Origin: Naegleria gruberi
Lineage: Eukaryota
Length of the DNA: 64,000 nt
Reading direction: 5' to 3' (one strand)
NCBI GenBank assembly: GCA_000004985.1
Contig: GG738916.1
Positions 23,321 to 63,680 of this stretch are shown here, piece after piece; positions within the stretch are counted from its first letter, which is position 1; each line of letters begins with the position of its first letter. The position numbers and the translations under genes were made by a program. The notes beneath the pieces were generated by a model, which worked only from the letters and a program-made list of their open reading frames with translations, was not told the DNA's origin and made no database searches.

Positions 23321-24031
23321 TATTAAAGCTCTGTATCAGAGGTTTCTCCTTGGTCACAGTTGATTTTTTAGAAGGATCTCCTTCAGCCAATATCTTTGGT
23401 TTCAAATGGTGAATTCAAGCAAGCCAATGCTGAGAAGGCCAAAGTTGACAATGATTATGTTTGTAAACATTTCAAATCCTATTTTTCAAAAAATTCAAAT
23501 AAAAAGTTGGTACATCATCATAGTTGTTATTTATCATCATTATAAAAGCCTCTTGGATGGTTCAAGAGATGCTGAATTCAAATGTTATAGAGATTGAACA
23601 GAATATTGTTGTACATTATATTTATTGTACCCAAGAAGGAACTTTTGGAATAAAGGACAGTTCCTTCAAGTTTACCAATTCAAATGCCTTTCATTTGGAA
23701 TAAGCCAAGCTCCCAGGAACTCACCAAGATTATGAAAAAACTGGTAACCAAGTGGAGACAACAAGGTATTATTTTGTTCCTAAAATTCAGAAAGAAAAGG
23801 GTGTCTTTACTCCCTGACTCAAACTGAAGCAATTTAGACTTCAAACGTAATATTTCCATCATTTGCAAGCCTAAGAACTGAAAAAGGATAAGGAATTGCT
23901 TTAGTGTTGAGAAATGAAGGAGAATTTTGTGAAGAATTAAGACAGGCCAAAATTAAATCCTTACAAGTCTGATTTCTAACTTGGAAAATTTATTTATTTA
24001 TTGATTGGCCCATGGTTTTACCTCATTTCCA

Positions 24032-26504
24032 TTATTTTCTGTTTACTCTCAACCAATAATCGATAATAACTTTCAAGAAATTATTGCATGGTATATTTTC
24101 TTGACAAGATAATTGGATTTTTTGTAAATAATCAAGAGTTAAATTATTTGAGCAAAATATCTTGAAATACTCAACTAGCTCTCTACAATCATTATTATTT
24201 TGTGAAACTGAAGCTAAATTTAGTAATATAATAAATTCAGTATCATTAATGGAATATAATTTTTCAACAATCAAGATACAGACATGTTTAACAATCCATG
24301 TAATATCCAATTGTTGTGCAATGATTAAAATACCAACCAAATCATTCAATTTAAGGTAATTGAACTCATATCCATAACATAATTTACATATGATTTGTAA
24401 TATTGTATTAATTTTAGCTGAATTATTGAACAAATCAATAATCCAATGATCTGATACCATCATTTCAATGAATTCATACAAGTCAACCACATTATTTTCA
24501 TTATTTTTAAATAGAATATTTAAAACTGAACTATGAACGGATAGAATTGATTTATGTAATTGCAATAATTCATTTTTATCCTTATTAATAATTACATGAA
24601 TATCACTATTACTTTCATCATTATATAATAATTTTAATGATTCAGTTACATTTTTGGCAATATTTTCAAGATTATCAATTTTATAATTAATTTGTTTAAA
24701 TGGTTGTTTAACATTATTAATTTTATCTTGAATAATTTCGAATAATGGATCTGATTTCAATAAAGTTGCATTTTCTTTAATAAATGCAAGACACTTATTT
24801 GCCAACAATAGCAAAATACTATTTTTAGCTTGTTTTAAAATATTTAAAGAAAGATAATTATTAACTATTCGTAAAATCCTCATAATGTTATCTACATTCA
24901 TTCTATTTGAAATGTCATTAAATAACAATAATTTAATTTCATGCTTGATATCATTAATATCATTTAATATAAATAGACAAGTTACTAAATTTAATTCTAA
25001 TTCTCCAAATGAAATGAAATTAATAAATTTATCATAATTACTAAATAAATCATCTATATTTAAACAATTTAAATCAATAATTGCGTTTTTAATTAAATAA
25101 TATAAAACTTTTTGGTCATTCTCATTTAAATGTTCAATTATATCATTTTTAATTAAATTATAAAAATCATTTGAAATATTTTTTAATAAATTTAAATCTA
25201 AATAAAAATTAGAATTAATTTCATAATTGAACTTAAAATTATCAGTTACCATAATATCATTAATCTTGAGACTATTCTCATTATCTGTTTCATGAATAAA
25301 AATAGTAAAATTTTTACCACAACAAATTTGAATTTCATCACCTTCCTTAATAGTAAATGGTAATTCAATTAATTTTAGTTCATTGGCTGATTTATTAGCA
25401 TATCCTAATTCGCCAAATTCATTAGATCCAAATGAATAGAACTTTTGGTCTACTGTTTGCAAAACACTGTGGAAGGTACCACTTTCCATATTAATAATAT
25501 TATCCATATTTGCTTGTTTAGAATTATAGTCAATATATTTGCATTCATTATTATATAACGATAAAATTTGATATTCATTCAATATTAATTGATCATAATT
25601 TTTCTCAAATTTAAACTCATTATAATTATTATGTAATTTAATTACTTTTTTAGGATTGTAATAATCTGCCAAGCCATAATCAATTAAAGTATAATCTAGA
25701 ATTTACAATAGAAGAATCATTAAAAATAATGAAACTAGTTCTTCCATTACATTTAATATCCTTAATATCTTCAATATTCTTATTAACTAATTTGGTAACA
25801 TTCATAAAATTATTTAAGGTAAAATAATCTTCAACATGTAATTTACCATTTACAATACTTTCAATTACAAATGGTTGGAATGATTGTGAATATTCATTCA
25901 TTCCACAAACATACAATTCATTTTCAAATGTTGTGAAAAATGTCAAATGAAATGTTACAAATATTTTGTTTACTTTTAACTTTTCTAAATTTGTATTTTG
26001 TAATAAATTAACGGCTACATCATTTGATTTTTTAGCAATGATAGCCAATTGTCCATGTTCATTATTACCAATACCAAATATGGAATTTAATTTAGATAAA
26101 AATACAACATGTTCTTTACCAATCGCAAAATCAATAATTTTGTCACTAGTATTTAAATTATTAAATTTAATCAATGTAGGAATATTAGAAATATTATTAA
26201 TAAATGAACAATTTCCCATTTTGTAAACATATCCCTTACGCGTAAGAAATATGCACAATTGATCTTGACTTTTAAATTTAATAATCTTATCATTAATTAA
26301 ATAATTTTGTAAATAATCAATTTTATCAAAACATGTATCATTTAATTTTGTAACAGTAATAATATCACTTTGTTTCTTCCAGAATCCATCTCCGCATCCG
26401 TAAACAAATTGTGATTTAGAAGAATTAATACCGAAAGCAGTGTTATTAGGTTCTGTTTCGTCGTCCACTACTTGATCAACATGGTGAATGGTGAATTGAT
26501 TCAT
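24032..26504 (-). CDS. RCC1-repeat and BTB-like domain protein (RCBTB-like), present as two ORFs in different frames.
   Basis: ORF 26504..25680 (true ATG at 26504) and ORF 25672..24032 (track start is a TTG). RCC1-like blades (GIGNNEHGQLAI, YSFGSNEFGELGY). A BTB-like segment (LQLHKSILSVHSSVLNILFKNNENNVVDLYEFIEMM). Very Asn/Ile-rich. The junction at 25672..25682 needs a -1/+1 shift or a non-canonical short intron. Confidence 0.5.
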
Positions 26505-27372
26505 TTTTTTTTATAGAGTGGTCTCTCGGTTGTTATTGATACAAGAGACATTAATAAACTTGTACACCTTTTATTTTGTTATAGATTGTTACAACAAATA
26601 TTGTGCTTACTCAGCATTGCATTCATTGGTTTTGTCTAGCTAGATCGGCGGAAATGAAATCTCATTCGTGTGATTGATGTGAGAGATGTTACGCGCCAAA
26701 ATTTCTACACCAAAAAATAAGCAAAGCCACTTTTTCGAACTCTTATTTGAAAATCCATTAAGGAAATTAAACTCTCAGTACTTTCAAGAAATACCTCTAC
26801 TCATCATCATTGGTATTTAATTCAATCAACATAAATCAGCATCAATTTGGAATATTTCAATTAGAGTAGCTGGGATACATCTCACCAAAAGTAATAAGAG
26901 CAATATTGTGTGATGGTGTTTCTTCTTGGAATGAAGAAAGTTGCCAACCTCGGAAATATCAAACATTATCATTAAGCTGTAATTCAACATCACATTATAT
27001 TTATTTTTATATTAATAGTAATACTTGTTCATTAGGAATTTCTTCAACTAATTAATATATTTTCATCATGAATTCCAAAAACATTGTATGATTATTAGGG
27101 ATGTCTAATCTAATATCACCATCAAGAGAGTTGGATTATTTGTATTCATCGAGTTGTGGAATTTTACTTCATCATACCTTATCATCAGCAAGCTCACTTC
27201 AGATCATTAAGGTAAATATCTTAATGGTCATCATCAACCAGTTGCAGATTAAAACTGTGATTTAATGTCTCAATTAAGTTGATTGCTATGTTTGGAAAAT
27301 ACACGAACGATTCAATATTTCAATTTTTAAAAAGGAAGGAAGATTCTTCATGACTTTCAAAAAATTAAAAAA

Positions 27373-29145
27373 ATGCTTTCTTTTTTGCACAAGGCTTTGA
27401 CACACAACAATAACAAGAATAACAATAATAATACTAATAATACTAATAACAATACTGATAACAATAATAATAGTGATAACAATAATTTTATTCCCAATGA
27501 TATTTTAATAATAATATTTCAATTTCTCAATCAACAAGATTATATAAAAATATCATTTGTTTGTAGATATTGGAGATTTGTTGTTCAACAACCATTCCGA
27601 AAGGAATTTACAAATTATATTTTAAACTCTTCATATTCAATAGTTTATTGTACATTTATTATTAATGCATTTGAGTTTTTTAAATTCTTTTCTTCCATAA
27701 CATTATTTTTCCATAATACTGTACCTGAATCAACATTTAAAGCTCTACTTTCTTCAATGAAATTACAAAGTTTATTTATTGATTCTTGTGTTGCTAAAAA
27801 TAATATACCATTCAATTCTATAAAACAATCTAATATAACTGAATTAGGATTAAATTGTAAAATGAAAAAGAAAGATTTACGTGCTTTATTTATTGCACTT
27901 CCAAATTTGAAACATTTAAGTTTAGGAACGGTAGTAACAGAATGTTTAATTAGCACGGAATTATTTCTGAGTACACATTGTCATAAATTAGAAACACTCC
28001 ATTTACAATTATTACCTGAAAATCAAAAAAAAATTGTAAAATTATTAAATGGAATATTTAATCCATCAACAACAACAATATCCAATCTCATTGATATTAG
28101 AATATTTGTAAAAGAATATTATACAACAAGTAATAGAAAATTACATAATTTTACATTTAATTTTAATTCATTTCCAAATTTAAAATATTTATTTCTTGAT
28201 ATTACCTATATTTATACATTAGAATCAATTAGCAATGTATTAAATTCAAATAATATTTCAAAATTACAAGAATTTGGATTTGGAACTATTAGAAAAGCTA
28301 TTGAAAAATTACAATTTAATTCGAGTGAAAATTTACAAAATTTAAAAAAATTATTTTTAAATAGAACAGAAATGATGACAAATATTGATAATCTTCCTTC
28401 ATTAGAATTATTATATATAGATGAATATGCAAAAAAACATTATTCCGCTACAAAATATTCAAAACCATGGAATTTAGCATCTAATGTGAAAATGCCATCT
28501 CTAAAATATTTACATTTAAATCTTTTTAATGAAACTCATTTACCTGATCGATTAAATGTGGAATCATTTAAAAATATTAAATATTTTTATTTTGAATCAG
28601 AATATAATATTGATTTATCAGAATTGAGTAAATTAAATTTAGAAATATTAATTCTTAACATTTCTTTAAAATATAATAAGAATATATTTCATCACATTTC
28701 TAAAATATCAACATTGAGAGATTTAACATTTAGTAATCCTATTAGTGAAATTGATTTGAAATTACTTTGTAAATTACCAAATTTAGAATATCTTTATATT
28801 ACATTGGAATTTTATAGTGAAACATTTTTTACTTTTAATTCACTAACTACACTTTCAATTCATTCAGATAATTTGAAAGAATTAAATTTCTTTCAAATAT
28901 CAAATTTACCAAAATTGAAAACTTTACTAATTCGTAATCCTTTTGATAATAACCATACATGGTGGTTGCAACAATTGTTTCCAAATTTACAAATAATTAA
29001 TGCAAGTACTAACAGTATAGGAATATTTTCAACATCATCTCAATATAATGATGGTATGAATTTTGGTGAGTATGAAGTTTCACAAAGAGCAGCAAATTAT
29101 TTACAAAATGAATATGTATGGCTCTTTCCAAAAAAATTTATTTAA
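27373..29145 (+). CDS. F-box/LRR-repeat protein (intact paralog B).
   Basis: 590-aa uninterrupted ORF. Poly-Asn N-terminus, F-box (IPNDILIIIFQFLNQQDYIKISFVCRYWRFVV), then LRRs (LPNLKHLSLGTVVTECL…LPNLEYLYITLEF…). Confidence 0.75.
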   Translation: MLSFLHKALTHNNNKNNNNNTNNTNNNTDNNNNSDNNNFIPNDILIIIFQFLNQQDYIKISFVCRYWRFVVQQPFRKEFTNYILNSSYSIVYCTFIINAFEFFKFFSSITLFFHNTVPESTFKALLSSMKLQSLFIDSCVAKNNIPFNSIKQSNITELGLNCKMKKKDLRALFIALPNLKHLSLGTVVTECLISTELFLSTHCHKLETLHLQLLPENQKKIVKLLNGIFNPSTTTISNLIDIRIFVKEYYTTSNRKLHNFTFNFNSFPNLKYLFLDITYIYTLESISNVLNSNNISKLQEFGFGTIRKAIEKLQFNSSENLQNLKKLFLNRTEMMTNIDNLPSLELLYIDEYAKKHYSATKYSKPWNLASNVKMPSLKYLHLNLFNETHLPDRLNVESFKNIKYFYFESEYNIDLSELSKLNLEILILNISLKYNKNIFHHISKISTLRDLTFSNPISEIDLKLLCKLPNLEYLYITLEFYSETFFTFNSLTTLSIHSDNLKELNFFQISNLPKLKTLLIRNPFDNNHTWWLQQLFPNLQIINASTNSIGIFSTSSQYNDGMNFGEYEVSQRAANYLQNEYVWLFPKKFI

Positions 29146-29282
29146 CATTAAAGCTCTGTATCAGAAGTTTCTCCTTGGTCAAATCTGAATAGTGAATTCA
29201 AGTAAGGCCAAAGTTGACAATGTTCAATGAATAATGTTTGTAAACATTTCAAATCCTATTTTCAAAAAATTCAAATAAAAAA

Positions 29283-30829
29283 ATGTCAAGATTAACTTTT
29301 CCGTTACTTCTTGCTACATTGATAATCGCTTTCGTTTTGGTGTCATCAGCATCATTATCGGATCGGGTTAATGCCTTGACTCCACTCATAAAAACATCAA
29401 AATTATTCTCCATCAAACAACAGAATAATAACAAGCAATTATTTATTACTGCTACAATTTATCCTAATTTTAAAATTGTTCATGGAGTGAAGGATTTAAA
29501 ATTTGGTTTGGCTACTATTGAATATAATGATCAGTTACATGCACAAGGATTTGATACATTGGTTTTAGAGACGAGACAATCTACAAGTTTGGTGGAAGAC
29601 TTTGCTATTGCTCAGGGGGCTGGATATTTGGAAGGCTATTTGACAATGCAGAGAATTTACAATCATTTTGTGAATATTAATAGTGTATCGTGGTGGAATG
29701 CTAAGGAGAATAGAACTTTGGGAATGTCAAGTAATATTCGTCAATTTTTCAAAGATCAAAANACATGGATTTTACAACAAGTGAGCCAACACATGAATGG
29801 AACAACAGAAGAGGATTTATATTGGCNNNNNNNNNNNNNNNNNNNNNNNNNNNNNNNNNNNNNNNNNNNNNNNNNNACTGATATTATTTCAGTCATACCG
29901 TTGGGTGGGTATTTAGTGCCTTGACAAGAATGATGAAGACATACACTCTCAATTTTGCAAATCCACTCACAAAGTCTCGCACAGTGACATTTTCGAGTTA
30001 TCCTGGATCATTAGGCAGTAATGATGACTATTATCAAACTGATGGTGGTCTTGTTGTTATCGAGACAACCATTGGCATTTTGAATAATACTCTCTACGAT
30101 AATACTCATCCTCAATCATTGTTGAGTTGGTTTAGAGTTGTCTTGGCCAATAGAATGGCTACAAGTGGCAGAGAATGGTTTGAAGTTTTTAGTATTAATA
30201 ATGGAGGAACCTATAATAATGAGTGGATGATTCTCGATGTGAAAAAGTTTATTCCTGGTCAAGCTCAATTGACAAAGGATTTATTCTGGGTAATTGAACA
30301 AATACCTGGAACAGTGGTGGGATCAGATCAAACAAATCTTCTCTCCACTCGCGGATACTTTGCATCTTATAATGTTCCTTTCTATCCTTCCATTTATGAA
30401 AAAACTGGATATGCAGAATATGTGAAGAAATTTCCAGAGACTTATCATTATATGAGTTATGATAAGTGTGCCAGATCTGAAATATTCAGAAGAGATCAAC
30501 ATTTAGTCAAAGATCTGCCATCCATGCAACGAATTATGCAATATGATAATTATCATGATGAATTTTCATTCGGAAATCCTGACTGGGTAATCTCAGCAAG
30601 AGACGATTTAGCTCCAAATGTTCCAAATGGACAAAAGAGTTGTGGAGGTGGATATGACTGTAAAATATCATCTATTTCTAAATGGAATTTTGTATTTTTC
30701 AGAAGTGGACCAGCTCACCAATTTACACCTGTTTTCAAGTTTGAGAATCAATGTGGACCTCAATACTCACATGTTGGATTGCCTTTGGAGTGGAACTTCC
30801 CTTGGATTCAATTGGATAGCAGAGTTTAA
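29283..30829 (+). CDS. Phospholipase B-like protein (PLBD/LAMA family), interrupted by assembly gaps.
   Basis: Signal peptide MSRLTFPLLLATLIIAFVLVSSAS. PLB-like motifs ATIEYNDQLHAQGFDTLVLETRQST…AQGAGYLEGYLTMQRIYNHF. Second track ORF 29921..30829 (…WFRVVLANRMATSGREWFEVFSINNGGTYNNEWMILD…) continues the same protein. The frame break coincides with N at 29762 and the 50-N gap 29827..29876. Confidence 0.75.
29827..29876. other. Assembly gap (50 N) inside the PLB-like gene; single N also at 29762.
   Basis: Run of n. Confidence 1.
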
Positions 30830-37459: not shown

Positions 37460-37530
37460 TCGGGTGTGGTATAGTGGTAGCATTCCAGACTGTCACTCTG
37501 GCGACCCGGGTTCAATTCCCGGCACTCGAG
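37460..37530 (+). tRNA. tRNA-Asp (anticodon GTC).
   Basis: Cloverleaf by eye. Acceptor stem TCGGGTG/CACTCGA with one G-T pair and discriminator G. U8 present. Anticodon stem CCAGA/TCTGG with loop CTGTCAC (GTC at 37492..37494). T-arm CCGGG-TTCAATT-CCCGG. Starts with U as eukaryotic tRNA-Asp does. No intron. Confidence 0.8.
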
Positions 37531-38933: not shown

Positions 38934-39240
38934 TGTTGCGTAATGTATTTTGTTGTAGCTTGAAGTATTGTTGCTGTTTTTTTTCAATTTGTTGTTGAGT
39001 AATTTTCATTCAAGTTCAATGCAAAGGTTGTTTTTAAAGTGAAATCCTCGCTATCATTTCGTCACCATTTTTTGTAAACTTCGTCATTAGATAAAAATAG
39101 ACTGTTTTTAAAAAGACAGCAACAATAAGAACCAATGTAGGGAGAAATATTAAAAACAATATTTATTCTCTTCTTCTAAAAGGTAAAATAAAAGCAATAG
39201 TTTTTAATGTTAAAGAATTGAGCTTAATAAAAAAGACTAC

Positions 39241-39400
39241 AGCACCACAGGTTCCCAAGTTGTCTCCAACCTCAGTACTGATGTGGCTCGACGATGCTTA
39301 ACTTCTCAAATCGGACGGGATGAGGTGCATTCATCGTGATATGGCCGTAGCCATTCCCTATGTATAAATCTTAATGTTGAATAAGAATATTACTGATTTT
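39241..39400. ncRNA. Candidate structured non-coding RNA / GC-richer island in a divergent promoter region (speculative).
   Basis: About 45% G+C in a locus that is otherwise under 25% G+C. No credible ORF. A DUSE-like TCCCAAG sits at 39258. A TATAAAT box sits at 39364. Confidence 0.2.
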
Positions 39401-49701: not shown

Positions 49702-51195
49702 TCAATAAGTTCTGTTTAAATCATTTTCTAGTTCCAACCAATGCCAACTTTTCCATTTCTCAATTGCTTGTTTTTGAGGTTCATTTTTAAGCTTGGTGAT
49801 GGCAACATCCAGCTCATGCTGTCTATTTCCAATTTCTCTGTGTTGAAGTTCAATTTCTTCAGTGGAGTTAGATGCTTGAATAACAGGCTCTGTAAATAAC
49901 ACACTATAGTTCACATTTTGAATGCTGTGTGTTTTGGTATTGTGATAGCTGTAGTATTTTCTTTTCTTTTGGTTTTTTGCCTTCCTAAATTGTCTATTCA
50001 TTAAAATTCTAAAACAACCGAATGCAGGTATAAACAGCATAAACAAAATACTACCAACAACTTGAGTCCAAAATGCACCAAGCATGAGCTTTAGGTATTC
50101 ATTTGGAGCTATTAAATTAATGGCTGTATTAAAACTGATACCAATGGCAATGTTTAAGATAATGGTAATAAAAGTAATGAATTTAAATGTAACCTCGAGA
50201 ACATTTGTAACGGTATCACTATTAATCAATATACTCTTATTGTTGATTGAATTTAACATGGCATCCATAATTGTCAAAAAGGCTGCATATGAACCTGTTT
50301 TGAAAAAGCTTGAATTTAAAATATCGACTATAGAAGCCAATATTTTGCTATCTCTGAAGTTTTGATTATGATCAGTATACTGAGTAGTATCATTTCTGCT
50401 GAAGTAGCTTGGATAGATACCTATAGGGCCTTGTTTGTCAATTCCTAACCCTGACAAAGTGTCGAAGGGAATGAGATCACTAAGAGTGGTCATTACAATT
50501 AACAAACTGATAGCAGCACCGAACGCAAGATTGTACCATGAAACAAGTGAGGTTTCTCTTTTTTGAACAAAGTCCTTCTTGTTTGTTTTGATATCTTTCT
50601 CAAGAGTTTCGTATTTCTTTTCAACTTCTCTTATAGCTGTAAGAAATTTTCTTTTCCCCTCCCAACCATTTTTAGCATCTTGGTTAGCAAACAGATTTAC
50701 TAAAGCTTCAACATCTTCTACCAAAACATTTCCATCAACAAGGATAACACTATTATAAATATTTTTGTAAAGGCTATTCAACTTTGTAATATCTACACCG
50801 TGCCAAAACGATGTCCAAGTAGTTGCACCATTCTCCCCAAAATAAAAATCGTAAAAAGCTATTTCAGTGTTGACTGGTGAATCTGGTATTTTGCTAATTA
50901 CACCCTTCAAACCATAGTAGCTAGTGGCAATCAACTCAATTCTCTCTCCAACATAGTCTGTAGTGTCAATTCCTTCTAAATCACCCAAAGTGTTGTACTT
51001 TCGTATTTTCTCAACATTTGCTTGTACAAAATTATGACAGTTGTGGAAGGATGTAGAGGCAAATTTGATAAGTTTTCCCACCTTTTTCCATTTTTTGTAA
51101 CGCCAAGCATAGTCGCTGGTGTCTCCTGTGCGTGCCACAATACCACAACAACCTTTGTTGGTTTTCTTGCCTTTTGCTTTGTTCTGAGATGACAT
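49702..51195 (-). CDS. Multi-pass membrane protein (same family as 51362..52504 and 46532..47983).
   Basis: 497 aa. N-terminal soluble region with IREVEKKYETLEKDIKT…KRETSLVSWYNLAFGAAISLLIV, paralleling IRALEEKYLGFKKSIKT…KPREASLIALFNISFGIWMG in the neighbouring gene. Then four TM helices and a basic tail. Confidence 0.55.
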   Translation of the reverse strand: MSSQNKAKGKKTNKGCCGIVARTGDTSDYAWRYKKWKKVGKLIKFASTSFHNCHNFVQANVEKIRKYNTLGDLEGIDTTDYVGERIELIATSYYGLKGVISKIPDSPVNTEIAFYDFYFGENGATTWTSFWHGVDITKLNSLYKNIYNSVILVDGNVLVEDVEALVNLFANQDAKNGWEGKRKFLTAIREVEKKYETLEKDIKTNKKDFVQKRETSLVSWYNLAFGAAISLLIVMTTLSDLIPFDTLSGLGIDKQGPIGIYPSYFSRNDTTQYTDHNQNFRDSKILASIVDILNSSFFKTGSYAAFLTIMDAMLNSINNKSILINSDTVTNVLEVTFKFITFITIILNIAIGISFNTAINLIAPNEYLKLMLGAFWTQVVGSILFMLFIPAFGCFRILMNRQFRKAKNQKKRKYYSYHNTKTHSIQNVNYSVLFTEPVIQASNSTEEIELQHREIGNRQHELDVAITKLKNEPQKQAIEKWKSWHWLELENDLNRTY

Positions 51196-54365: not shown

Positions 54366-54507
54366 GCTCTCTTATTTTTTTTTGAACCTTAACTCCATTT
54401 TCCCCATTTTTCTTTTGATTCGGCAAAATACACAAAAACGTACAAAAATGTAAAAAATATTACAACGATGACTTTTGAAAGAGTTTACCAAAACCGACTG
54501 TTAAAAA

Positions 54508-55790
54508 ATGAAGAGAGCTCGAGATGAAATGAGAAGCGCAAACAACATTGTCCTGTTATTATTCTTGTTGATGATGATGACAATCTTTTCCACAACAACA
54601 ACAGCAGCAACTACAAGTTCCACCACTAAATTATCATATATTTCAACAATTGCAGGAAGTGGATTAATATCAGCAGCAGGTATGGAAGGAGATGGTGGTT
54701 TGGCTATCAATGCCCAATTAAATTCTCCCTCCTATTCAATAAGTATTTCCCCTCTCAGCAATAATAATTACACTGAAACACTTATTGTCGATACACAAAA
54801 TGGAAGAATTAGAAAAATATTTATGAATGGTACAATTTTCACATTACCAATTAATATGCAAACAGGTAACAAGTTTAAACCAACCATGGCTGTTTTATTT
54901 AGAAATGAATTATACATGACAGATGTGTTAAATCATAGAATTCTTTCTGTTTGCCTTTCACGTTATTTGGTGACCATTGTTTCTGGAAAGCAAAACTGTA
55001 ATGAACATTCTGATTGTGATGGTTTTAGTGGTGATGGTGGTTTAGCTAGTAGAGCAAAATTAAATTCACCTAATGGTCTCTCTATTTCTCAGAATGGTGA
55101 AATTTACATTGCTGACACATTGAACCATAGAATCAGAAAGATTAATAGTTATGGAGTGATTTCAACTATTGCTGGAACTGGTAGAGCATCCTTTGGTGGT
55201 GATGGTGGATTTGCTGTTCTTTCACAATTAAACTCTCCAAATGGTGTTCATATTTCACAGAATGGTGAAATTTACATTGCTGATACATTGAACCATAGAA
55301 TTAGAAAGATTAATAGTTATGGTGTGATTTCAACAGTGGCAGGAACTGGTAGAGCATCATTTGGTGGTGATGGTGGTTTGGCTATAAACTCTCAATTGAA
55401 TTCACCATATGGCGTCCATGTTTCACAGAATGGTGAAATTTACATTGCTGACACATTGAATCATCGAATTAGAAAGATATTTGTGAATGGAACTATTACA
55501 ACCATTGCTGGAAGTAGTAGCGATGGATCATTTGGTGGTGATGGTGGTTTGTCAATTGCGAGTCGACTTAATTCTCCTAAAGGTGTTTTTGTTTCTCCAA
55601 ATAATAATGAAATATTAATTGCAGACACATCAAATAACAGGATTAGAAAGATCATTGAATGTGGTACAACTCTTCAATTTACACAAGATTTCAATGGAGC
55701 TATGAGTTGTGTGAATACATGCAATGGAACACGATCCAATTCAAAATCAGTTTGTAATGGCAATGGTATCTGTAATGGTTTTAATGAATG
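54508..55790 (+). CDS. Secreted NHL-repeat beta-propeller protein, 5' part of an NHL/EGF-array gene, truncated by the assembly gap at 55791.
   Basis: Signal peptide MKRARDEMRSANNIVLLLFLLMMMTIFS. Six NHL repeats of the form LNSPNGxxISQNGEIYIADTLNHRIRKI, then the first EGF-like Cys pattern (CVNTCNGTRSNSKSVCNGNGICNGFNEC) before the gap. Nucleotide sequence is about 98% identical to 56163..57363. Confidence 0.65.
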
Positions 55791-55841
55791 TNNNNNNNNN
55801 NNNNNNNNNNNNNNNNNNNNNNNNNNNNNNNNNNNNNNNNN
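55791..55841. other. Assembly gap (51 N) truncating the first NHL/EGF gene copy.
   Basis: Run of n. Confidence 1.
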
Positions 55842-56160
55842 CACCGAATAGTCACTGAATGTTTACCATATAATAACCGAATGGTTACTGAATATTTATT
55901 GAATAGTTACCCACCAATTTCATTCCTTTACCCAACAATCAACCGACTACCAACCAACTAACACTGAACTAAAACGGTCAGGCGATTATGGGCTGATATT
56001 CGATTAATTTCTGGAAAATCGTTCAGTTATTTTCGGAAACAAGTTGGGGGAAATTAGGGTTGTAGTCGGTGGTAGTAGGGTTGTGGATGGGGTTTAGACG
56101 GAACATAGCCAACTAAAAACCAACTATAACACTGTCTATTACCCAAGTACTCCACTCTTA
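55842..56160. repeat. Compositionally atypical GC-richer block with internal direct/inverted sub-repeats, bounded by an assembly gap; possible repetitive-element fragment.
   Basis: Motifs agtcactgaatg / ggttactgaatat / cgttcagttatt recur. caaccgactaccaaccaactaac is partially mirrored by ggttgtagtcggtggtagtagggttgtgg. The block replaces the upstream region seen in front of the first NHL gene copy. Confidence 0.3.
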
Positions 56161-56179
56161 GGAGAGAGCTCGAGATGAA

Positions 56180-59100
56180 ATGAGAAGCGCAAACAACATT
56201 GTCCTGTTATTATTCTTGTTGTTGATGATGACACTCTTTTCCACAACAACAACAATAGGATACTTTTCGTATGTGAAAGCAACAACTGCAAGTTCCACCA
56301 CTAAATTATCATATATTTCAACAATTGCAGGAAGTGGATTAATGGCAGCATCAGGTATGGAAGGAGATGGTGGTTTGGCTATCAATGCCCAATTAAATGC
56401 TCCCTCCTATTCAATAAGTATTTCCCCTCTCAACAATAATAATTACACTGAAACACTTATTATAGATACACAAAATGGAAGAATTAGAAAAATATTTATG
56501 AATGGTACAATTTTCACATTACCAATTAATATGCAAACAGGTAACAAGTTTAAACCAACCGTGGCTGTTTTATTTAGAAATGAATTATACATGACAGATG
56601 TGTTAAATCATAGAATTCTTTCTGTTTCTCTGTCAAGTTATTTGGTGACCATTGTTTCTGGAAAGCAAAACTGTAATGGACATTCTGATTGTGATGGTTT
56701 TAGTGGTGATGGTGGTTTAGCTAGTAGAGCAAAATTAAATTCACCAAATGGTCTCTCTATTTCTCAGAATGGTGAAATTTACATTGCTGACACATTGAAC
56801 CATAGAATCAGAAAGATTAATAGTTATGGAGTGATTTCAACTATTGCTGGAACTGGTAGAGCATCCTTTGGTGGTGATGGTGGATTTGCTGTTCTTTCAC
56901 AATTAAACTCTCCAAATGGTGTTCATATTTCACAGAATGGTGAAATTTACATTGCTGATACATTGAACCATAGAATTAGAAAGATTAATAGTTATGGTGT
57001 GATTTCAACAGTGGCAGGAACTGGTAGAGCATCCTTTGGTGGTGATGGTGGTTTGGCTATAAACTCTCAATTGAATTCACCATATGGCGTCCATGTTTCA
57101 CAGAATGGTGAAATTTACATTGCTGACACATTGAATCATCGAATTAGAAAGATATTTGTGAATGGAACTATTACAACCATTGCTGGAAGTAGTAGCGATG
57201 GATCATTTGGTGGTGATGGTGGTTTGTCAATTGCGAGTCGACTTAATTCTCCTAAAGGTGTTTTTGTTTCTCCAAATAATAATGAAATATTAATTGCAGA
57301 CACATCAAATAACAGGATTAGAAAGATCATTGAATGTGGTACAACTCTTCAATTACACAAGATNNNNNNNNNNNNNNNNNNNNNNNNNNNNNNNNNNNNN
57401 NNNNNNNNNNNNNNNNNNNNNNNNNNNNNNNNNNNNNNNNNNNNNNNNNNNNNNNNNNNNNNNNNNNNNNNNNNNNNNNNNNNNNNNNNNNNNNNNNNNN
57501 NNNNNNNNNNNNNNNNNNNNNNNNNNNNNNNNNNNNNNNNNNNNNNNNNNNNNNNNNNNNNNNNNNNNNNNNNNNNNNNNNNNNNNNNNNNNNNNNNNNN
57601 NNNNNNNNNNNNNNNNNNNNNNNNNNNNNNNNNNNNNNNNNNNNNNNNNNNNNNNNNNNNNNNNNNNNNNNNNNNNNNNNNNNNNNNNNNNNNNNNNNNN
57701 NNNNNNNNNNNNNNNNNNNNNNNNNNNNNNNNNNNNNNNNNNNNNNNNNNNNNNNNNNNNNNNNNNNNNNNNNNNNNNNNNNNNNNNNNNNNNNNNNNNN
57801 NNNNNNNNNNNNNNNNNNNNNNNNNNNNNNNNNNNNNNNNNNNNNNNNNNNNNNNNNNNNNNNNNNNNNNNNNNNNNNNNNNNNNNNNNNNNNNNNNNNN
57901 NNNNNNNNNNNNNNNNNNNNNNNNNNNNNNNNNNNNNNNNNNNNNNNNNNNNNNNNNNNNNNNNNNNNNNNNNNNNNNNNNNNNNNNNNNNNNNNNNNNN
58001 NNNNNNNNNNNNNNNNNNNNNNNNNNNNNNNNNNNNNNNNNNNNNNNNNNNNNNNNNNNNNNNNNNNNNNNNNNNNNNNNNNNNNNNNNNNNNNNNNNNN
58101 NNNNNNNNNNNNNNNNNNNNNNNNNNNNNNNNNNNNNNNNNNNNNNNNNNNNNNNNNNNNNNNNNNNNNNNNNNNNNNNNNNNNNNNNNNNNNNNNNNNN
58201 NNNNNNNNNNNNNNNNNNNNNNNNNNNNNNNNNNNNNNNNNNNNNNNNNNNNNNNNNNNNNNNNNNNNNNNNNNNNNNNNNNNNNNNNNNNNNNNNNNNN
58301 NNNNNNNNNNNNNNNNNNNNNNNNNNNNNNNNNNNNNNNNNNNNNNNNNNNNNNNNNNNNNNNNNNNNNNNNNNNNNNNGCCAATTCTGTGAAATTCCAA
58401 TTTGTAATGGAACAATGGCAACTGATGCTTTGGTTTGTAATGGCAATGGTACATGTATTCAACCAGATATATGTAATTGTACTTCAGAATGGGGTGGACA
58501 GTATTGTGAAATTCCATATTGTAATGGAATATTGGCAAATAATATATCTGCTTGTGAAGGACATGGTAACTGTATTAGCCCAAATATTTGTGAGTGTAAT
58601 TCGACATATGGTGGAGAATTTTGTGAATCTCCAAAATGTAACTTTACACTGGCAACTGATCCTTATGTATGTACTGGAAATGGAGAATGTATTCAACCAG
58701 ATGAATGTATTTGTAATACCAATTGGACTGGTCAATTCTGTCAAACTCCACTTTGTAATGGTACGAGTGCAACTGATGCATTGGTTTGTAATGGAAACGG
58801 TCAATGTGTGAGTCCAAATATTTGTGAATGTAATTCAAGTTGGTCAGGAGAACTTTGTGAAATTCCAATTTGTAATGGAACTTTGGCCATTGATGAATTT
58901 GTGTGTAGTGGTAATGGTGCATGTATTGGTCCAGATGTTTGTGAGTGCAATTCTACATGGGGTGGACAATATTGTGAATCTCCAAAATGTAACTCTACAC
59001 TGGCAACTGATCCTTATGTATGCAATGGTAATGGAGAATGTTTTCAACCCAATGAATGTATTTGTAATTCAAATTGGACAGGTCCATTTTGTGAAATTCC

Positions 59101-61044
59101 AATATGTAATGGTATTAAGGCTACCAATGATAGTAATTCAACTTTAACCACCAATGAAACAGTGGTGTGTAGTGGAAATGGTCTTTGCATTCGTCCAGAC
59201 GAATGTTTATGTAATTCAAATTGGGCAGGTCAATATTGTGAAATTCCAATATGTGGAGATGTTTTGGCAACCAATGAAACAGCATGTAATGGCAATGGTA
59301 AATGTGTTCAACCAAATGAATGCATTTGCGACTCAAATTGGACAGGTCAATTATGTGAAACTCCAATATGTAGTGGTATAATTTCCACTAATATATCTGT
59401 TTGTAGTAGAAAGGGTGATTGTGTTGGTGCCAATCTTTGTATCTGTTTAACTGGTTGGGGAGGTGAAGATTGTTCCACACCAATTTGTAATAATATTCTA
59501 TCTACCAATGCTACTACCAATACTGATAGTAATGGAACTATAGTTAGCAATAATACATTGGTGTGTAGTGGACATGGTGAATGTACTAGTCCAAATCAAT
59601 GCAATTGTAATTTAAATTGGGGTGGTAAACAATGTGAAATACCTAAATGTCAAGGTATTTTGGCTAATAATGAGGCAGTTTGCAACTCTAGAGGATATTG
59701 TGTCAATGAAAATCAATGTCAATGTAATGAAATGTGGGGAGGTCAATTTTGTGAAATTCCATTTTGTAATGGAACTTTAGCCACTGATTCAAATGTGTGT
59801 AATTCATTGGGAGTATGTGTTGGTCCAAATCAATGTAAATGTCTCTCAGGTTGGGGTGGTAAACTATGTACAATACCATCATGTAATGGAATTCTTGCAT
59901 TTGATGAGAATGAAGTGTGTATCGCAAAGAGTAATGCATGTAGTGGAAATGGAAAGTGTATTGATCTTAATCGATGCAAATGTGACAAAGGTTGGACTGG
60001 ACCATTATGTTCAACACCAACATGTAATGGAACATCGGCCACTGAACTAACTGTTTGTAATGGTTTTGGAGTGTGTGTTGCACCAGATACGTGTAATTGT
60101 TATAGANNNNNNNNNNNNNNNNNNNNNNNNNNNNNNNNNNNNNNNNNNNNNNNNNNGCAACACCAACATGTAATGGAATTGTTGCCACAGATCCAAACGT
60201 GTGCAATTCAAGTGGTGTTTGTGTCGATTNTGATAAGTGTGAATGTTTTTCTGGTTATGGAGATGCATTCTGTGGCACTCCAACTTGTAATGGAATTCTA
60301 GCAACTCAAATTAATGTAGAAGTAGCTGTTTGTAGTGGTCGTGGAGTGTGTTTGGGACCAAATAAGTGTGTCTGTGAACCGAATTGGGGTGGTTTCATGT
60401 GTAATATTCCAAAATGCTACGATATTGAAGGAGACAAGAAAGGTGCTTGCTTTGGAAATGGTGATTGTATAGCAGTTGACTCATGTAAATGTTATCAAGG
60501 TTATATTGGTTATGATTGTCGTACTGTTGCTCCTGATAATAATTGTGGTGGATCAGGTTCAGGAACTACTTTTTGGGATGTTGTCTTGGAGGGTATGAAG
60601 ATAATTCGTACAGTGTTATCCGGTGCAGTGTCACTAGCTAGTTCAATTAGTGATGTTATTTCATCCTTAGGAAAAGGTTTGATTGACCTTCTTGGAGGAA
60701 TTGTTCCAAGCATTGCAAATATTTTCAGCTCCATTCCAAAATTAATAGAGAAAATTATTTCCTTTATTATCAGTACGGCAGAGAAGTTTATTAACTTTAT
60801 TCTCGGTTTATGGACAAAGATATTAGATTTTATATCATGGTTATTGACCTATCTTCCAAAAATATTTTCTGGAGTTACAACTCAACAAGTGGCAACAGTT
60901 TTGATTGTCATTGGTGTTGTCATACTTTTAATCATTATTTGTGTATTGTTGTATTTACTTAGTCCATATGTTACATTGGTACTTGAATTTTTCAAAATTA
61001 TTACCAGTTTTTGCTCAGCTCGTAAGAAGGCACTTAAGGAGTAG
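56180..61044 (+). CDS. Giant type-I membrane protein: signal peptide, 6-bladed NHL propeller, about 28 tandem EGF-like repeats, single TM. Interrupted by gaps 57364..58379 and 60107..60156.
   Basis: ORF 56180..60301 continues as ORF 60199..61044 once gap-induced frame offsets are allowed for. EGF units have the form C-E-I-P-x-C-N-G-x-x-A-T-D-x-x-V-C-N-G-N-G-x-C-x-x-P-x-x-C-x-C-N-x-x-W-x-G-x-x, period about 114-120 nt. C-terminal TM is VATVLIVIGVVILLIIICVLLYLL followed by a short tail. Stop at 61042..61044. Confidence 0.7.
57364..58379. other. Assembly gap (1016 N) between the NHL and EGF parts of the giant gene.
   Basis: Run of n. Confidence 1.
58378..60540 (+). repeat. Coding tandem-repeat array (EGF-like module, about 117-nt period, about 18 units visible after the 57364..58379 gap).
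   Basis: Recurrent nucleotide strings tgtgaaattccaatttgtaatgga / tgtaatggaaatgg / aattggacaggtcaattttgtga at regular spacing. Protein-level C-x-I-P-x-C-N-G periodicity. Confidence 0.8.
60107..60156. other. Assembly gap (50 N) inside the EGF array; single N at 60219.
   Basis: Run of n. Confidence 1.
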
Positions 61045-61171
61045 TACAATTATAAACCATTTAGTTGTTGTTTCCAATAATCTCAAAAATATTAGATTTT
61101 TTCCCTTGGTCAACCAAAGTTTTCTTGATTAGTTTCAAAAGAAAAGAGACAATAATAAACAAATTCTCAAT

Positions 61172-63185
61172 TTATTTAGGTACCAACTTTTTCTTTTCAA
61201 TAGAATCGCCAGAACAACAACATCTTGCAACACAACAGCAACAAATTGTCAATGAAATGGTAATCAATACAAATAAAACTGATACACCAACAACAACAGC
61301 AATAACTCTGTTTGTGTTAAGTGAAGAAGTATCAAGGAAATCTATAAAGATGAAAGAATCCAAAAAGTCAACAATAACTTGCTTCACTTTGTAGTAAACA
61401 TATAAAAGTTCACCCCAGAAACTACTTGCTGGTGCTTTGTTATCAACTAATGTACCATTGGATGCAATGTAAAAATCATACTCAACTACGAGTGAGGAAG
61501 TATAGGTACCACAAGTGAGAGTCATCATTGCATAGCCTGTGAAATTTTTGGTTGGATAAATTGTAATTGAGTTTGTATCAGAATTTGACAAGGATACATA
61601 AGTTGGTGTAAATGAAGGTGTAGATGATTCAAAGAAACAACCTTGTTGAGTTTTAGATTTAACTACACAAGATGTTGATAAACAACTGACAAGAGTTGGT
61701 TGTGAATTGTCAGTTGTCAATATTGTCATGTTACCAACAATTTTCAATGAAACTGATGCTAATGAAACACCTTTAAATGAAATTGAAGAAAGAACTGTTG
61801 GATCAGTTGGTTCAACAGTAACTGGAATAAAAGATGCTCCATTACGTGTTTCACCTTTGAAAGAAACACGTTTAAGCATATTATCAGGCCAAGTATATGC
61901 TAATATTTGTGTATCTGCATCTCCTTTGATTAATTGTGGGTTAGAATCACCACCATCAGTATATCTCTCTATATAGATACAATTTGGTTCCTTGAAAAAA
62001 AGTTTGGTAGAAATGACTGGATTGGAGTTGATTGAATTTTCTTTGAAATTATAAATTTTAAAATTTCCAGTTATAGAACCACAAGTAGTTGATAAAGTAA
62101 GACTATTTGAAGTTTCAGTGGATTTCCAGCAAGAATTCCTTCAATATTGCTACCAATAATAATAGGTTCAGTTGAATCTATACCTAAATAACCAAATCCT
62201 AGAATATTTTCAGGCCTACTAATGGCATGTGAAATACATCCTTTGAAGCAATGATGGATGCTTGTAAATTCAAATCTGAATATTCGGCAAATTTGGCCAA
62301 GAAAGAAGCTCTACTTGCAGCATGGGCCTCTAAAATACGTCTAGTAATAGAGGCATTATCAAAAGAAGCTACAGTATAAGCAGGGGAACTTTCACAACCA
62401 GTTGAAAAGTGTACCATTGATTGAATTTCTGAGAGTTCAGGAAGTGTAACATCAAAATTACAACTACCTCTTGGTGATTGACAATTATATTTGATTTCAC
62501 TGTTTTTAATATTGCTGACCTTAATCCAACCAATCTTTGAAATATCAGAAACGTTAAAACCATTTACTACTGAAGAAGGTAGTAAGTAAAAATCTGATTT
62601 AGATGTTAAATCAATAACTGAATAATCTGCAACAAATGGAAGGGTAGTTGAATTTAAATCCATAATGAAATTTAAACCAGTGTAACCAATTGGAATTGAT
62701 GCTTGATTATTTACAACTGAAACTTGAGAAGAACTTCCTTGATATTTAACAGTAATAAAACCGCTATAGGTAGGAGGATCCAATTTACAAACTTTGAAAC
62801 GTCTAAAAGCTTCAAATGCCAAATTATAACAAGAAGTACTATAACCTGGGTCAGTGTTTGGAATACTAAAAGAAACGGTGTTCAAATAGTTATTACCTGT
62901 AAAATCAGGTGGAGAACAAACATTGCTTTTTGAGCAAGCAGAAGTATATCTTGGAATTGGATCATCTGTATAATAACAACTAGAAGATGATAATTTAACA
63001 ATAAAATCCATTCCAAGTGTAATATCAACAATGGAATTGTCATCTGTAATCTTGAAACAAACTTTGTCATTCAATGTTCGGGTATAACCAGTATCAACAG
63101 AATAAATACAACTGGTTGAATTATTGGCACCAAGGCATGACTTTTGTTGACCTTTAGAAAGTGCTATTGGAAGACACTGTTCATA
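61172..63185 (-). CDS. Large extracellular/glycosylated membrane protein with C-terminal TM and poly-Cys tail (possibly IPT/TIG-type adhesion family). Fragmented by a frame break and the 63186..63680 gap.
   Basis: ORFs 62199..63074 and 61172..61879, same strand. Extracellular-type composition (many N-x-S/T sequons, Cys pairs). C-terminus VIAVVVGVSVLFVLITISLTICCCCVARCCCSGDS. The 5' end is lost in the gap. Family assignment is speculative. Confidence 0.4.
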
Positions 63186-63680
63186 NNNNNNNNNNNNNNN
63201 NNNNNNNNNNNNNNNNNNNNNNNNNNNNNNNNNNNNNNNNNNNNNNNNNNNNNNNNNNNNNNNNNNNNNNNNNNNNNNNNNNNNNNNNNNNNNNNNNNNN
63301 NNNNNNNNNNNNNNNNNNNNNNNNNNNNNNNNNNNNNNNNNNNNNNNNNNNNNNNNNNNNNNNNNNNNNNNNNNNNNNNNNNNNNNNNNNNNNNNNNNNN
63401 NNNNNNNNNNNNNNNNNNNNNNNNNNNNNNNNNNNNNNNNNNNNNNNNNNNNNNNNNNNNNNNNNNNNNNNNNNNNNNNNNNNNNNNNNNNNNNNNNNNN
63501 NNNNNNNNNNNNNNNNNNNNNNNNNNNNNNNNNNNNNNNNNNNNNNNNNNNNNNNNNNNNNNNNNNNNNNNNNNNNNNNNNNNNNNNNNNNNNNNNNNNN
63601 NNNNNNNNNNNNNNNNNNNNNNNNNNNNNNNNNNNNNNNNNNNNNNNNNNNNNNNNNNNNNNNNNNNNNNNNNNNNNNNN
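63186..63680. other. Assembly gap (495 N) removing the 5' part of the minus-strand membrane glycoprotein gene.
   Basis: Run of n. Confidence 1.

Follow-up and report, generated by a model that had tools for sequence, protein, structure and literature searches.

A gapped Naegleria gruberi locus with one or two members of a Naegleria family of NHL-propeller and EGF-array membrane glycoproteins

Two nearly identical 5′ modules, each coding for a signal peptide and an NHL propeller, and a single downstream EGF array that ends in a transmembrane (TM) helix and a short tail lie towards the end of the 64,000-nt stretch of Naegleria gruberi DNA analysed here (the window; Table 1). Taken together, we consider it likely that the locus encodes one or two type I glycoproteins of a Naegleria-wide family, which would act in contact binding through a propeller on a stalk, and that most likely two tandem paralogues were collapsed by the assembly. 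The order signal peptide, NHL, EGF repeats and TM had been read correctly in the original prediction, and the four assembly gaps were all found where it had placed them. Its "cluster of giant genes" was overstated: it comes down to one gene, or two, of roughly 1,600 aa and a neighbour that is unrelated, and no other NHL or EGF locus was found in the remaining 54 kb of the window. The "aggregation stage" suggested for expression timing does not apply, because the organism is N. gruberi NEG-M and no dictyostelid, the ORF at 49705-51195 on the minus strand being identical to N. gruberi EFC37660.1. A dictyostelid origin, first suspected because the DNA is AT-rich, was rejected on this evidence.

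Table 1. Features of the NHL-EGF-TM locus and its surroundings, in positions of the window.
Feature	Positions	Strand	Details
Copy 1, start codon, signal peptide and Thr/Ser-rich linker	54508-54627	+	From translation; hydropathy peak at aa 10-32
Copy 1, six-bladed NHL beta-propeller	54628-55662	+	Pfam, PDB search, AF2, Foldseek
Copy 1, first Cys-rich EGF-like module CVNTCNGTRSNSKSVCNGNGICNGFNEC	55708-55791	+	Cut by gap
Assembly gap 1	55792-55841		50 N, probably a placeholder length
Unique segment before copy 2	55842-56162		321 bp, non-coding-looking; stop codons in the frames read
Copy 2, 5′ CDS: signal peptide, extra 8 aa, NHL propeller	56180-57363	+	Ends at gap
Assembly gap 2	57364-58379		1016 N; room for about 8-9 more EGF repeats if the length estimate is right (117-bp unit)
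EGF array, main part	58382-60106	+	13 complete repeats, preceded by the end of another and followed by one cut by gap
Assembly gap 3	60107-60156		50 N, inside an EGF repeat; frame differs on either side
Last three EGF repeats	60157-60519	+	One N at 60230
Juxtamembrane region, about 120 aa	60520-60888	+	Gly/Ser linker, then amphipathic, moderately hydrophobic segments; hydropathy 1.0-1.4
TM helix VATVLIVIGVVILLIIICVLLYLL	60889-60960	+	Single strong helix, hydropathy up to 3.55
Cytoplasmic tail of 27 aa SPYVTLVLEFFKIITSFCSARKKALKE and stop codon (61042-61044)	60961-61044	+	
Orphan neighbour gene with Cys-rich ectodomain	61172-63185	-	Probably not part of the NHL-EGF system; 5′ end lost in gap
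Assembly gap 4	63186-63680		495 N

The domain assignments of the original prediction were upheld by Pfam. For the propeller, TEN_NHL was matched at 7e-34 (copy 1) and 5e-35 and NHL at 1e-30, and both copies exceed the curated cut-offs for NHL-repeat membership (20 bits for NHL, PF01436; 27.1 bits for TEN_NHL, PF25021), with 104 bits for NHL and 118-122 bits for TEN_NHL. For the EGF array, EGF_2 (1e-60), EGF_Teneurin (7e-55) and EGF_TEN were matched. The IPT/TIG domain that had also been proposed for checking was matched in none of the six segments translated, even when E ≤ 10 was allowed for the minus-strand gene. The AF2 model of the propeller (pLDDT 80.7, pTM 0.83) comprises 6 x 4 strands, with blades 1-2 less confident (pLDDT 46-75), and blades 3-5 of copy 1 form a 168-bp tandem repeat with 82% matches.

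A PDB sequence search with the copy 1 NHL domain returned 9IFO (2e-79), and the same entry, a bacterial TLP, was the best Foldseek match (E 1e-29, TM 0.77, 36% identity), followed by teneurin-2/3/4 (E 4e-24 for teneurin-2); TM scores to solved NHL propellers ranged from 0.67 to 0.77. The propeller is 40-43% identical to bacterial NHL proteins, 36% to BiTLP and 21-26% to animal teneurins. When the whole copy-1 protein was compared with an index of 5.8 billion proteins, the matches were mostly multi-propeller bacterial NHL proteins (35-51% identity), and neither the protein itself nor a eukaryotic orthologue was found among the top 120. A search with the N-terminal 190 aa gave only proteins of at most 333 aa, the best Naegleria matches being NHL-only (34-41% identity), and again not the protein itself.

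Bacterial relatives of the propeller are labelled "sugar lactone lactonase YvrE", and there are weak secondary Pfam matches to Arylesterase (5e-10), Str_synth (4e-8), SGL (7e-8) and Vgb_lyase. A membrane-tethered extracellular enzyme (a lactonase, a lyase or a strictosidine-synthase-like protein) in place of a binding module is nevertheless very improbable in our judgement. The YvrE-type names are automatic labels, all the enzyme-model matches overlap much stronger NHL matches, the SGL match spans only about a third of its model, and Arylesterase, Str_synth and Vgb_lyase have no individually passing matched stretch. Moreover, the closest solved structures in sequence and fold searches are non-catalytic scaffolds (teneurin, TLP, the PknD sensor, TRIM-NHL and NHLRC2).

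The visible EGF repeats add up to 17 and a fragment, against the at least 18 proposed originally; the array, the TM helix and the short tail, of 27 aa, are otherwise present as placed. The repeat unit is C-x10-C-x5-C-x5-C-x-C-x8-C (39 aa, 117 bp), with 24 N-glycosylation sequons between 58382 and 60106 and a 351-bp super-unit of three repeats at 58382-59114. The frame changes inside a repeat across the 50-N gap at 60107, which means that the true length of that gap is not 50 and that the 50 N are a placeholder. Since the 1016-N gap lies between the two, we infer rather than read that copy 2 continues into the array.

The junction from NHL to EGF is directly visible in copy 1, where the first EGF-like module follows the propeller; the corresponding junction of copy 2 falls in the gap. 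The ORF of copy 1 starts with ATG 54508, has a signal peptide with a basic n-region and the h-region IVLLLFLLMMMTIF, and remains open for 428 codons into the gap after 55791, so that copy 1 does run into this gap, as had been claimed. Its first EGF-like module, CVNTCNGTRSNSKSVCNGNGICNGFNEC, resembles the EGF repeats of Naegleria paralogues, for example residues 350-378 of P0342, which lie directly after the P0342 NHL domain. Copy 1 might instead be a truncated duplicate, either a secreted NHL-only protein or a pseudogene, if gap 1 is short and the gene ends soon after the first EGF-like module. Gap 1 is indeed given as no more than 50 N, it is followed directly by non-coding-looking sequence, and NHL-only secreted proteins of about 300 aa occur in Naegleria (N. 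gruberi P0131 and N. lovaniensis P0178). However, the ORF has not ended where the gap cuts through its EGF module, and 50 N is not a measured length, the 50-N gap at 60107 being demonstrably wrong, so that we regard truncation as unlikely.

The two 5′ modules had been described as about 98% identical, and this was confirmed. An alignment of 54512-55689 with 56163-57363 contains 19 substitutions (about 98.4% identity in aligned columns), and blastn, which counts indels, gives 96.3%, far beyond chance. The ATG of copy 2 at 56180 is the equivalent of Met8 in copy 1, its propeller occupies 56303-57337, and it differs further by a 24-bp in-frame insert at 56254-56277, encoding IGYFSYVK, and by the loss of 1 bp at 57353, with 10 nt left to the end of the contig. 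The substitutions are distributed unevenly: 18 of the 19 fall in the first 560 bp, where divergence reaches 3.4% in addition to the 24-bp indel, and one in the last 620 bp. The codon changes, which lie in the signal region and the first two blades, are almost only non-synonymous (14, against 3 synonymous, for 885 N and 264 S sites), with dN/dS of about 1. Homology breaks off at 54511/56162, and the sequences upstream of this point are completely unrelated between the copies. An LRR gene occupies 52.5-54.4 kb, ahead of copy 1.

The 321-bp segment in front of copy 2 matched only itself within the window. It was considered as a repeat or a transposon end, and this idea was dropped for want of a second copy in the window; it contains no tRNA and no Rfam family. 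An acceptor-like sequence, ...ctccactcttag followed by GAG, is found at 56158, near the start of copy 2.

These data bear on whether one gene or two are present. Judged from the sequence, it is plausible, and in our view most likely, that two tandem paralogues have near-identical EGF arrays, which the Sanger assembler merged into the one array seen at 58.4-61.0 kb, with the gaps hiding the paralogues. Such a collapse would account for the fact that the two NHL contigs stop where NHL gives way to EGF, each within about 100 nt of the homologous junction. The distinct 5′ modules, with 19 substitutions and a 24-bp indel, and the unrelated upstream sequence also speak for two paralogues. A simple tandem duplication, on the other hand, predicts the 321 bp found before copy 2 also at the right end of the second unit, and it is absent there and throughout the window.

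This absence fits better with a single gene. The 1,522-bp contig 55842-57363 would in that case come from the other haplotype in a heterozygous diploid, or represent a paralogue from another place in the genome, set into a scaffold gap by mate pairs, and the tandem duplication would be an artefact of assembly. The contig is very short and has a gap on both sides, the divergence is mosaic, a dN/dS of about 1 is expected for young alleles or errors, and Naegleria has been described as mainly heterozygous diploid, with heterozygosity reported for N. gruberi (PMC9928731). A plain allele, however, would share the upstream sequence, so that the haplotype reading needs an extra structural difference at 54511/56162, and the divergence and 24-bp indel over the first 560 bp are high for alleles. 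Moreover, the family includes the pair EFC38199.1/EFC38200.1, whose consecutive accession numbers on one scaffold suggest, from the numbering alone, that real adjacency occurs in this family. A single gene is a serious possibility, although we do not favour it over two tandem paralogues. In either case repeats have made the locus a weak point in the 2010 draft assembly, and the genes it seems to contain should not be relied on as assembled.

The same layout is not confined to this locus. NHL is also present in 16 of the 150 best EGF-array relatives, mostly N-terminal to the EGF array and combined with a C-terminal TM and a short tail. Ten of the NHL-carrying relatives were looked up, and all eight with a name were "predicted proteins" of N. 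gruberi (EFC41150.1, EFC38199.1, EFC38200.1 and EFC42088.1) or N. lovaniensis (KAG2389232.1, KAG2374402.1, KAG2394121.1 and KAG2373947.1); Pfam confirmed the same domain set in five named members. With at least four N. gruberi and at least four N. lovaniensis proteins among the 150 best EGF-array relatives, the architecture cannot be called unusual, as it had been at first. These proteins constitute an uncharacterised family, defined in the present analysis from the EGF-array relatives and Pfam; a literature search for Naegleria together with NHL, teneurin or EGF-like domains returned nothing on it. An "EGF-like domain-containing protein" is mentioned, in an unrelated context, in N. fowleri secretions.

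The products of the locus share with this family the signal peptide followed by an N-terminal TEN_NHL-type propeller, the EGF type (E = 0 to 1e-59, 36-50% identity to family members over the array) and the single C-terminal TM with a short tail, as in the paralogues P0256, P0295, P0342 and P0323. Several members carry a signal peptide, one to several N-terminal TEN_NHL-type propellers, the same type of EGF and a C-terminal TM; between the locus and N. gruberi EFC41150.1, the NHL domains share 47% identity. The C-terminal end, in contrast, is atypical for the family: several paralogues end in an acidic "VEL"-type motif that is missing from the tail found here, some have REJ or FN3 domains inserted after the EGF array and ahead of the TM, and nothing in the paralogues corresponds to the juxtamembrane region and tail of this locus. 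No homologue of the juxtamembrane region was found in the 5.8-billion-protein search, in Pfam or in the fetched Naegleria paralogues, and the C-terminal 209 aa, from the last EGF to the stop, gave zero matches in the 5.8-billion-protein index. Queries with both ends of the gene did not recover the product itself from the public protein sets searched, so that the exon structure has no independent gene model behind it. The locus is, apparently, a new and unannotated member, or two, of a known but uncharacterised Naegleria family.

The opposite-strand gene with a poly-Cys tail, noted in the original prediction, is present downstream of the array, with a TM at 61306-61244 followed by CCCCVARCCC at 61243-61214. 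Coding from 63185 to 61175 requires two frame changes near 62100-62260, and no GT-AG introns able to join the frames were found. Its translation gave nothing meaningful in Pfam (E ≤ 10), in a phmmer search of the PDB (E ≤ 10) or in phmmer against more than 390 fetched proteins, and the N-terminal half had a pLDDT of 30 in single-sequence AF2. A HAP2/class II fusogen, an idea suggested by the Cys-rich tail, found no support.

On the basis of this layout we infer a possible role in surface adhesion or recognition. The predicted product would consist of a signal peptide, a six-bladed NHL propeller of the bacterial/teneurin type, an N-glycosylated array of 39-aa EGF units (17 visible and probably about 25 repeats), an amphipathic juxtamembrane region, a TM and a 27-aa tail. 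The EGF array may serve as a stiff stalk holding the propeller tens of nanometres from the amoeba membrane, and the propeller would be the ligand-binding part, in a contact-dependent binding of the substrate, of bacterial prey or of other cells. With so short a tail, in which no domain is recognised, the protein itself would not signal enzymatically. A sizeable Naegleria surface family thereby gains one or two apparently unannotated members; the family is a reasonable candidate for the binding of the amoeba to prey, to substrate or, in the pathogenic relative N. fowleri, to host tissue.

The family pairs two extracellular modules that are best known from teneurins, and a resemblance to teneurin- or tenascin-like proteins had been proposed from the start. 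It holds for the individual domains, as judged by Pfam and the PDB. The best Pfam models are teneurin-specific for both domain types (TEN_NHL, EGF_Teneurin and EGF_TEN), teneurin NHL domains are structural neighbours of the propeller, whose closest solved fold is that of teneurins/BiTLP (PDB 9IFO/9PT5; PMC13018210), and both kinds of protein would be extracellular, contact-dependent surface proteins. It does not hold for the overall architecture. Teneurins have type II topology and the domain order ICD-TM-EGF(8)-Cys-rich-TTR-FN-plug-NHL-YD shell-ABD-Tox-GHH (PMC13018210), whereas here type I topology is indicated by the signal peptide at the N-terminus and by the only TM, which lies 27 aa before the C-terminus, and the order is reversed, SP-NHL-EGF(17 or more)-TM, with at least 17 visible EGF repeats after the NHL instead of the eight that precede it in metazoa. 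Of the FN-plug, NHL, YD/RHS superfold and toxin-like domain, NHL alone is present: Pfam found no FN-plug, YD/RHS shell, TTR, Tox-GHH, FN3 or fibrinogen globe in the visible parts. The gaps, written as 1016, 50 and 50 nt (lengths that are estimates), are too small for a YD shell, which exceeds 1,000 aa and would not fit into the 1-kb gap. Tenascins are secreted oligomers with EGF, FN3 and a fibrinogen globe, and this protein is membrane-anchored with no fn3 or fibrinogen match. As the propeller is also nearer to bacterial NHL proteins than to animal teneurins, a true teneurin or tenascin homologue, sharing whole-architecture ancestry with animal adhesion proteins, is extremely improbable: the topology and the lack of the other domains effectively refute it.

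The shared modules could have come together twice. Naegleria is a non-opisthokont bacterivore, and in this family a eukaryote would for a second time, and independently, have paired EGF repeats with an NHL propeller of bacterial-like type, a point of relevance to the horizontal-transfer account of how teneurins arose. A bolder conjecture, and as a whole a rather improbable one, is that Naegleria independently joined a bacterial-type NHL propeller to teneurin-type EGF arrays, creating a large, rapidly duplicating type I receptor family, a convergent "inverted teneurin", in which the predominantly non-synonymous copy differences would reflect diversifying selection on a surface for prey, mate or self recognition and not assembly noise.

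The type I layout is also reminiscent of the animal receptors with an EGF stalk, such as tenascin-type arrays, the PEAR1/MEGF10/Draper class of engulfment receptors and Delta/Jagged, which likewise combine an N-terminal recognition domain, a tandem EGF stalk and one TM; Pfam models of this group matched the array (EGF_DL_JAG 1e-33, EGF_PEAR1L 5e-19 and JAG1-like_EGF2 5e-19). This likeness would be a functional analogy and does not imply homology beyond the EGF module. The putative recognition domain is here an NHL propeller and not an EMI, DSL or fibrinogen domain, there is no FN3 or fibrinogen domain and no recognised signalling domain in the 27-aa tail, and the EGF unit is distinguished by its C1-C2 loop, which is glycosylated and, with 10 or more residues, unusually long.

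With this locus a known but uncharacterised family of Naegleria surface proteins gains a new and apparently unannotated member, or a pair of them. Domain searches upheld its original NHL and EGF assignments: in Pfam, the two signal peptide-NHL modules (copy 1 and copy 2) matched TEN_NHL (7e-34 and 5e-35) and NHL (1e-30), and the EGF array 3′ of copy 2 matched EGF_2 (1e-60, 10 stretches), EGF_Teneurin (7e-55, 11 stretches) and EGF_TEN (2e-47); the IPT/TIG domain also proposed for checking is not present. By far the best PDB sequence match was the NHL domain of a Bacillus inaquosorum teneurin-like protein (9IFO/9PT5, 2e-79), whose structure is described in PMC13018210, followed by SOQ1, Thin, NHLRC2, teneurins, TRIM71 and PknD. 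An AlphaFold2 model of copy 1 residues 40-428, built on a 122-sequence alignment, has six four-stranded blades (pLDDT 80.7, pTM 0.83), and with it Foldseek retrieved 9IFO first (E 1e-29, TM 0.77, 36% identity) and then teneurin-2, -3, -4 and fly Ten-m. The propeller is 40-43% identical to bacterial NHL proteins, compared with 47% for its best Naegleria paralogue, and a bacterial origin is possible. The bacterial relatives (P0088, P0045 and others) come from soil and freshwater bacteria, among them Telluribacter, Spirosoma, Fibrella and Acidobacteria, and from metagenomes.

When the EGF array was searched exhaustively with HMMER against 1.84 billion representative proteins, 2,412 matched, the best 150 being 36-50% identical. 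NHL was found in 16 of these 150 by local phmmer with the NHL domain as query. In most of them it precedes the EGF array, and many of the 16 also start with a predicted signal peptide and end in a single TM and a short tail; the architecture, at first called unusual, is thus common in Naegleria. Eight of ten NHL-EGF relatives looked up could be named, all from N. gruberi (EFC41150.1, 2,807 aa; EFC38199.1, 4,502 aa; EFC38200.1, 1,514 aa; EFC42088.1, 2,158 aa) or N. lovaniensis (KAG2389232.1, KAG2374402.1, KAG2394121.1, KAG2373947.1). None has a label beyond "predicted protein" or "EGF-like domain-containing protein", and for five of them Pfam confirmed TEN_NHL and NHL together with EGF_2/EGF_Teneurin/EGF_TEN, in some cases with REJ or FN3 inserted ahead of the TM. 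Other top matches of the EGF array come from the same two species or are unnamed metagenome proteins, the longest with 7,087 aa. Unlike the window protein, several Naegleria paralogues have tails ending in an acidic ...VEL... motif. Our literature search found no paper discussing Naegleria NHL-EGF proteins, and Tucker et al. (2012), whose screen for EGF plus NHL proteins was aimed at finding teneurins, do not mention Naegleria. Whole copy 1, its N-terminal 190 aa, the EGF array and the C-terminal 209 aa of the locus (last EGF repeat to stop codon) all lacked a self match in the protein collections, so the locus was probably left unannotated, or gap-containing models were excluded.

Features of the NHL-EGF locus and its surroundings
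Feature	Coordinates	Strand	Remark
U1 snRNA gene	13376-13543	-	
AT-rich stretch	22000-30000		gaps at 29762 and 29827-29876
tRNA-Asp(GTC) gene	37460-37530	+	
5S rRNA gene	39234-39352	-	
ORF matching EFC37660.1	49705-51195	-	
Copy 1	54508-55791	+	ATG 54508
Propeller, copy 1	54628-55662	+	
Blades 3-5, copy 1	55024-55551	+	
Gap	55792-55841		50 N
Copy 2	56180-57363	+	ATG 56180
In-frame insert, copy 2	56254-56277	+	24 bp
Blades 3-5, copy 2	56699-57226	+	
Gap	57364-58379		1016 N
EGF array, first part	58382-60106	+	
Gap	60107-60156		50 N
EGF array, second part	60157-60519	+	single N at 60230
Juxtamembrane region	60520-60888	+	about 120 aa: Gly/Ser linker, then amphipathic, moderately hydrophobic segments
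TM helix	60889-60960	+	single, strong
Tail, stop codon	61042-61044 (stop)	+	27 aa
Third gene	63185-61175	-	
TM helix, third gene	61306-61244	-	
Frame changes, third gene	62100-62260	-	
Gap	63186-63680		495 N

The EGF array, TM helix and short tail are as originally described; copy 2 and the array would join inside the 1016-N gap. The first part of the array holds the end of one repeat, 13 complete repeats and one interrupted at the following gap, and the second part three more; the unit is C-x10-C-x5-C-x5-C-x-C-x8-C (39 aa, 117 bp), with 24 N-glycosylation sequons in the array, many within the long C1-C2 loop. In the first six repeats (58382-59114) a 351-bp three-repeat super-unit fits better (79% matches) than the 117-bp unit (66%), a periodicity indicating that the array was amplified in three-repeat blocks. 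The juxtamembrane segment has no detectable homologue anywhere, Naegleria paralogues included. The reading frame shifts across the gap at 60107, and the 50-N gaps are therefore placeholders, not measured lengths. All four gaps originally noted were found again at their stated places, as were the two head-to-tail NHL modules of about 98% identity.

In copy 1 a basic/hydrophobic signal peptide is followed by six NHL blades and a single Cys-rich EGF-like module, and the ORF stays open for 428 codons up to the gap; that this copy is truncated seems improbable. Copy 2 starts at an ATG equivalent to copy 1 Met8. Within 56140-56180 it reads TAG at the position matching the copy 1 ATG, preceded by a polypyrimidine tract, ...ctccactcttag followed by GAG, which resembles a 3′ splice acceptor; its start may be the downstream Met, or an upstream exon may be hidden in the gap. 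Alignment of 54512-55689 with 56163-57363 shows 19 substitutions (about 98.4% identity), 18 of them in the first 560 bp, with 14 non-synonymous and 3 synonymous codon changes (dN/dS roughly 1.2). Right after the signal h-region, an insert in copy 2 adds IGYFSYVK, which could change the cleavage site, and a 1-bp deletion at 57353, 10 nt from the contig end, is typical of a low-quality read end. In both copies blades 3-5 form a 168-bp tandem repeat (82% DNA matches); recent internal duplication has therefore enlarged the propeller or is homogenising it.

Homology between the copies begins abruptly at 54511/56162, and the unrelated upstream DNA and clearly different 5′ modules argue for real tandem paralogues with collapsed EGF arrays, a reading to which we give an even chance or slightly better. 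The contigs of both copies break off no more than about 100 nt from the homologous NHL/EGF boundary, as happens in assembly where two copies enter near-identical repeats. EFC38199.1 and EFC38200.1 (P0285 and P0342), which have consecutive GenBank accessions on the same 243,952-bp scaffold, point the same way: the accession numbers suggest a second adjacent NHL-EGF pair elsewhere in the genome. Copy 2 could also be a haplotig or a misplaced paralogue, and about one chance in three seems fair to us for such an artefact: its contig is just 1.5 kb with gaps on either side, the differences form a mosaic and dN/dS is about 1, heterozygosity has been reported for N. gruberi (PMC9928731), and the 321 bp preceding copy 2, unique within the window, are not repeated where a simple tandem unit should end. 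The locus is a repeat-induced weak spot of the draft assembly.

At about 32% G+C the window is AT-rich, and ordinary genes (a CCT chaperonin subunit, Paf1, an LRR protein) adjoin the locus; a tblastn scan of the rest of the 64 kb found no further NHL or EGF coding sequence. One neighbouring ORF is identical over its full length to N. gruberi EFC37660.1 / XP_002670404.1 (NAEGRDRAFT_53624; 245-kb scaffold). The window therefore belongs to the 2010 Sanger draft genome of N. gruberi NEG-M, a heterolobosean amoeboflagellate and no dictyostelid, and the "aggregation stage" test once proposed is inapplicable. Dispersed among protein-coding genes are a 5S rRNA gene, a tRNA-Asp(GTC) gene and a U1 snRNA gene barely above the gathering score, and one stretch with two more gaps falls to 21-27% G+C, against about 33% elsewhere.

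The opposite-strand third gene was confirmed. Its ectodomain is rich in Cys and sparsely glycosylated, and with it come a TM helix and a juxtamembrane cluster, CCCCVARCCC, resembling a palmitoylation site; the 5′ end of the gene is missing in the 495-N gap. Over a stretch of about 110 bp the frame changes two times and no GT-AG intron reconciling the frames was found there, which points to a pseudogene or to sequencing or assembly errors (two single-base). Pfam, PDB and the paralogues gave no match for it, its single-sequence AlphaFold model is useless (pLDDT 30), and nothing was found tying it functionally to the NHL-EGF gene.

From the layout, a six-bladed propeller carried outermost on a long and heavily glycosylated EGF stalk with one TM anchor, we infer a contact receptor or adhesin, in which the propeller would bind ligand and the stalk give reach. 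The 27-aa tail would be incapable of enzymatic signalling, the amphipathic juxtamembrane segment might serve oligomerisation or membrane association, and plausible ligands for a soil bacterivore would be substrate, prey surfaces or other amoebae. A catalytic propeller, to which weak secondary Pfam matches (SGL, arylesterase and strictosidine-synthase models) point, is a minor alternative.

The predicted resemblance to teneurins and tenascins stands for single modules and fails for the whole protein. Pfam detected no FN-plug, YD/RHS, TTR, toxin, FN3 or fibrinogen domain in it, and membership of either family is rejected on the defining features of topology, domain order and missing domains. Teneurins are type II proteins of the order ICD-TM-EGF(8)-Cys-rich-TTR-FN-plug-NHL-YD shell-toxin (PMC13018210), whereas the window protein is type I, with NHL before EGF.
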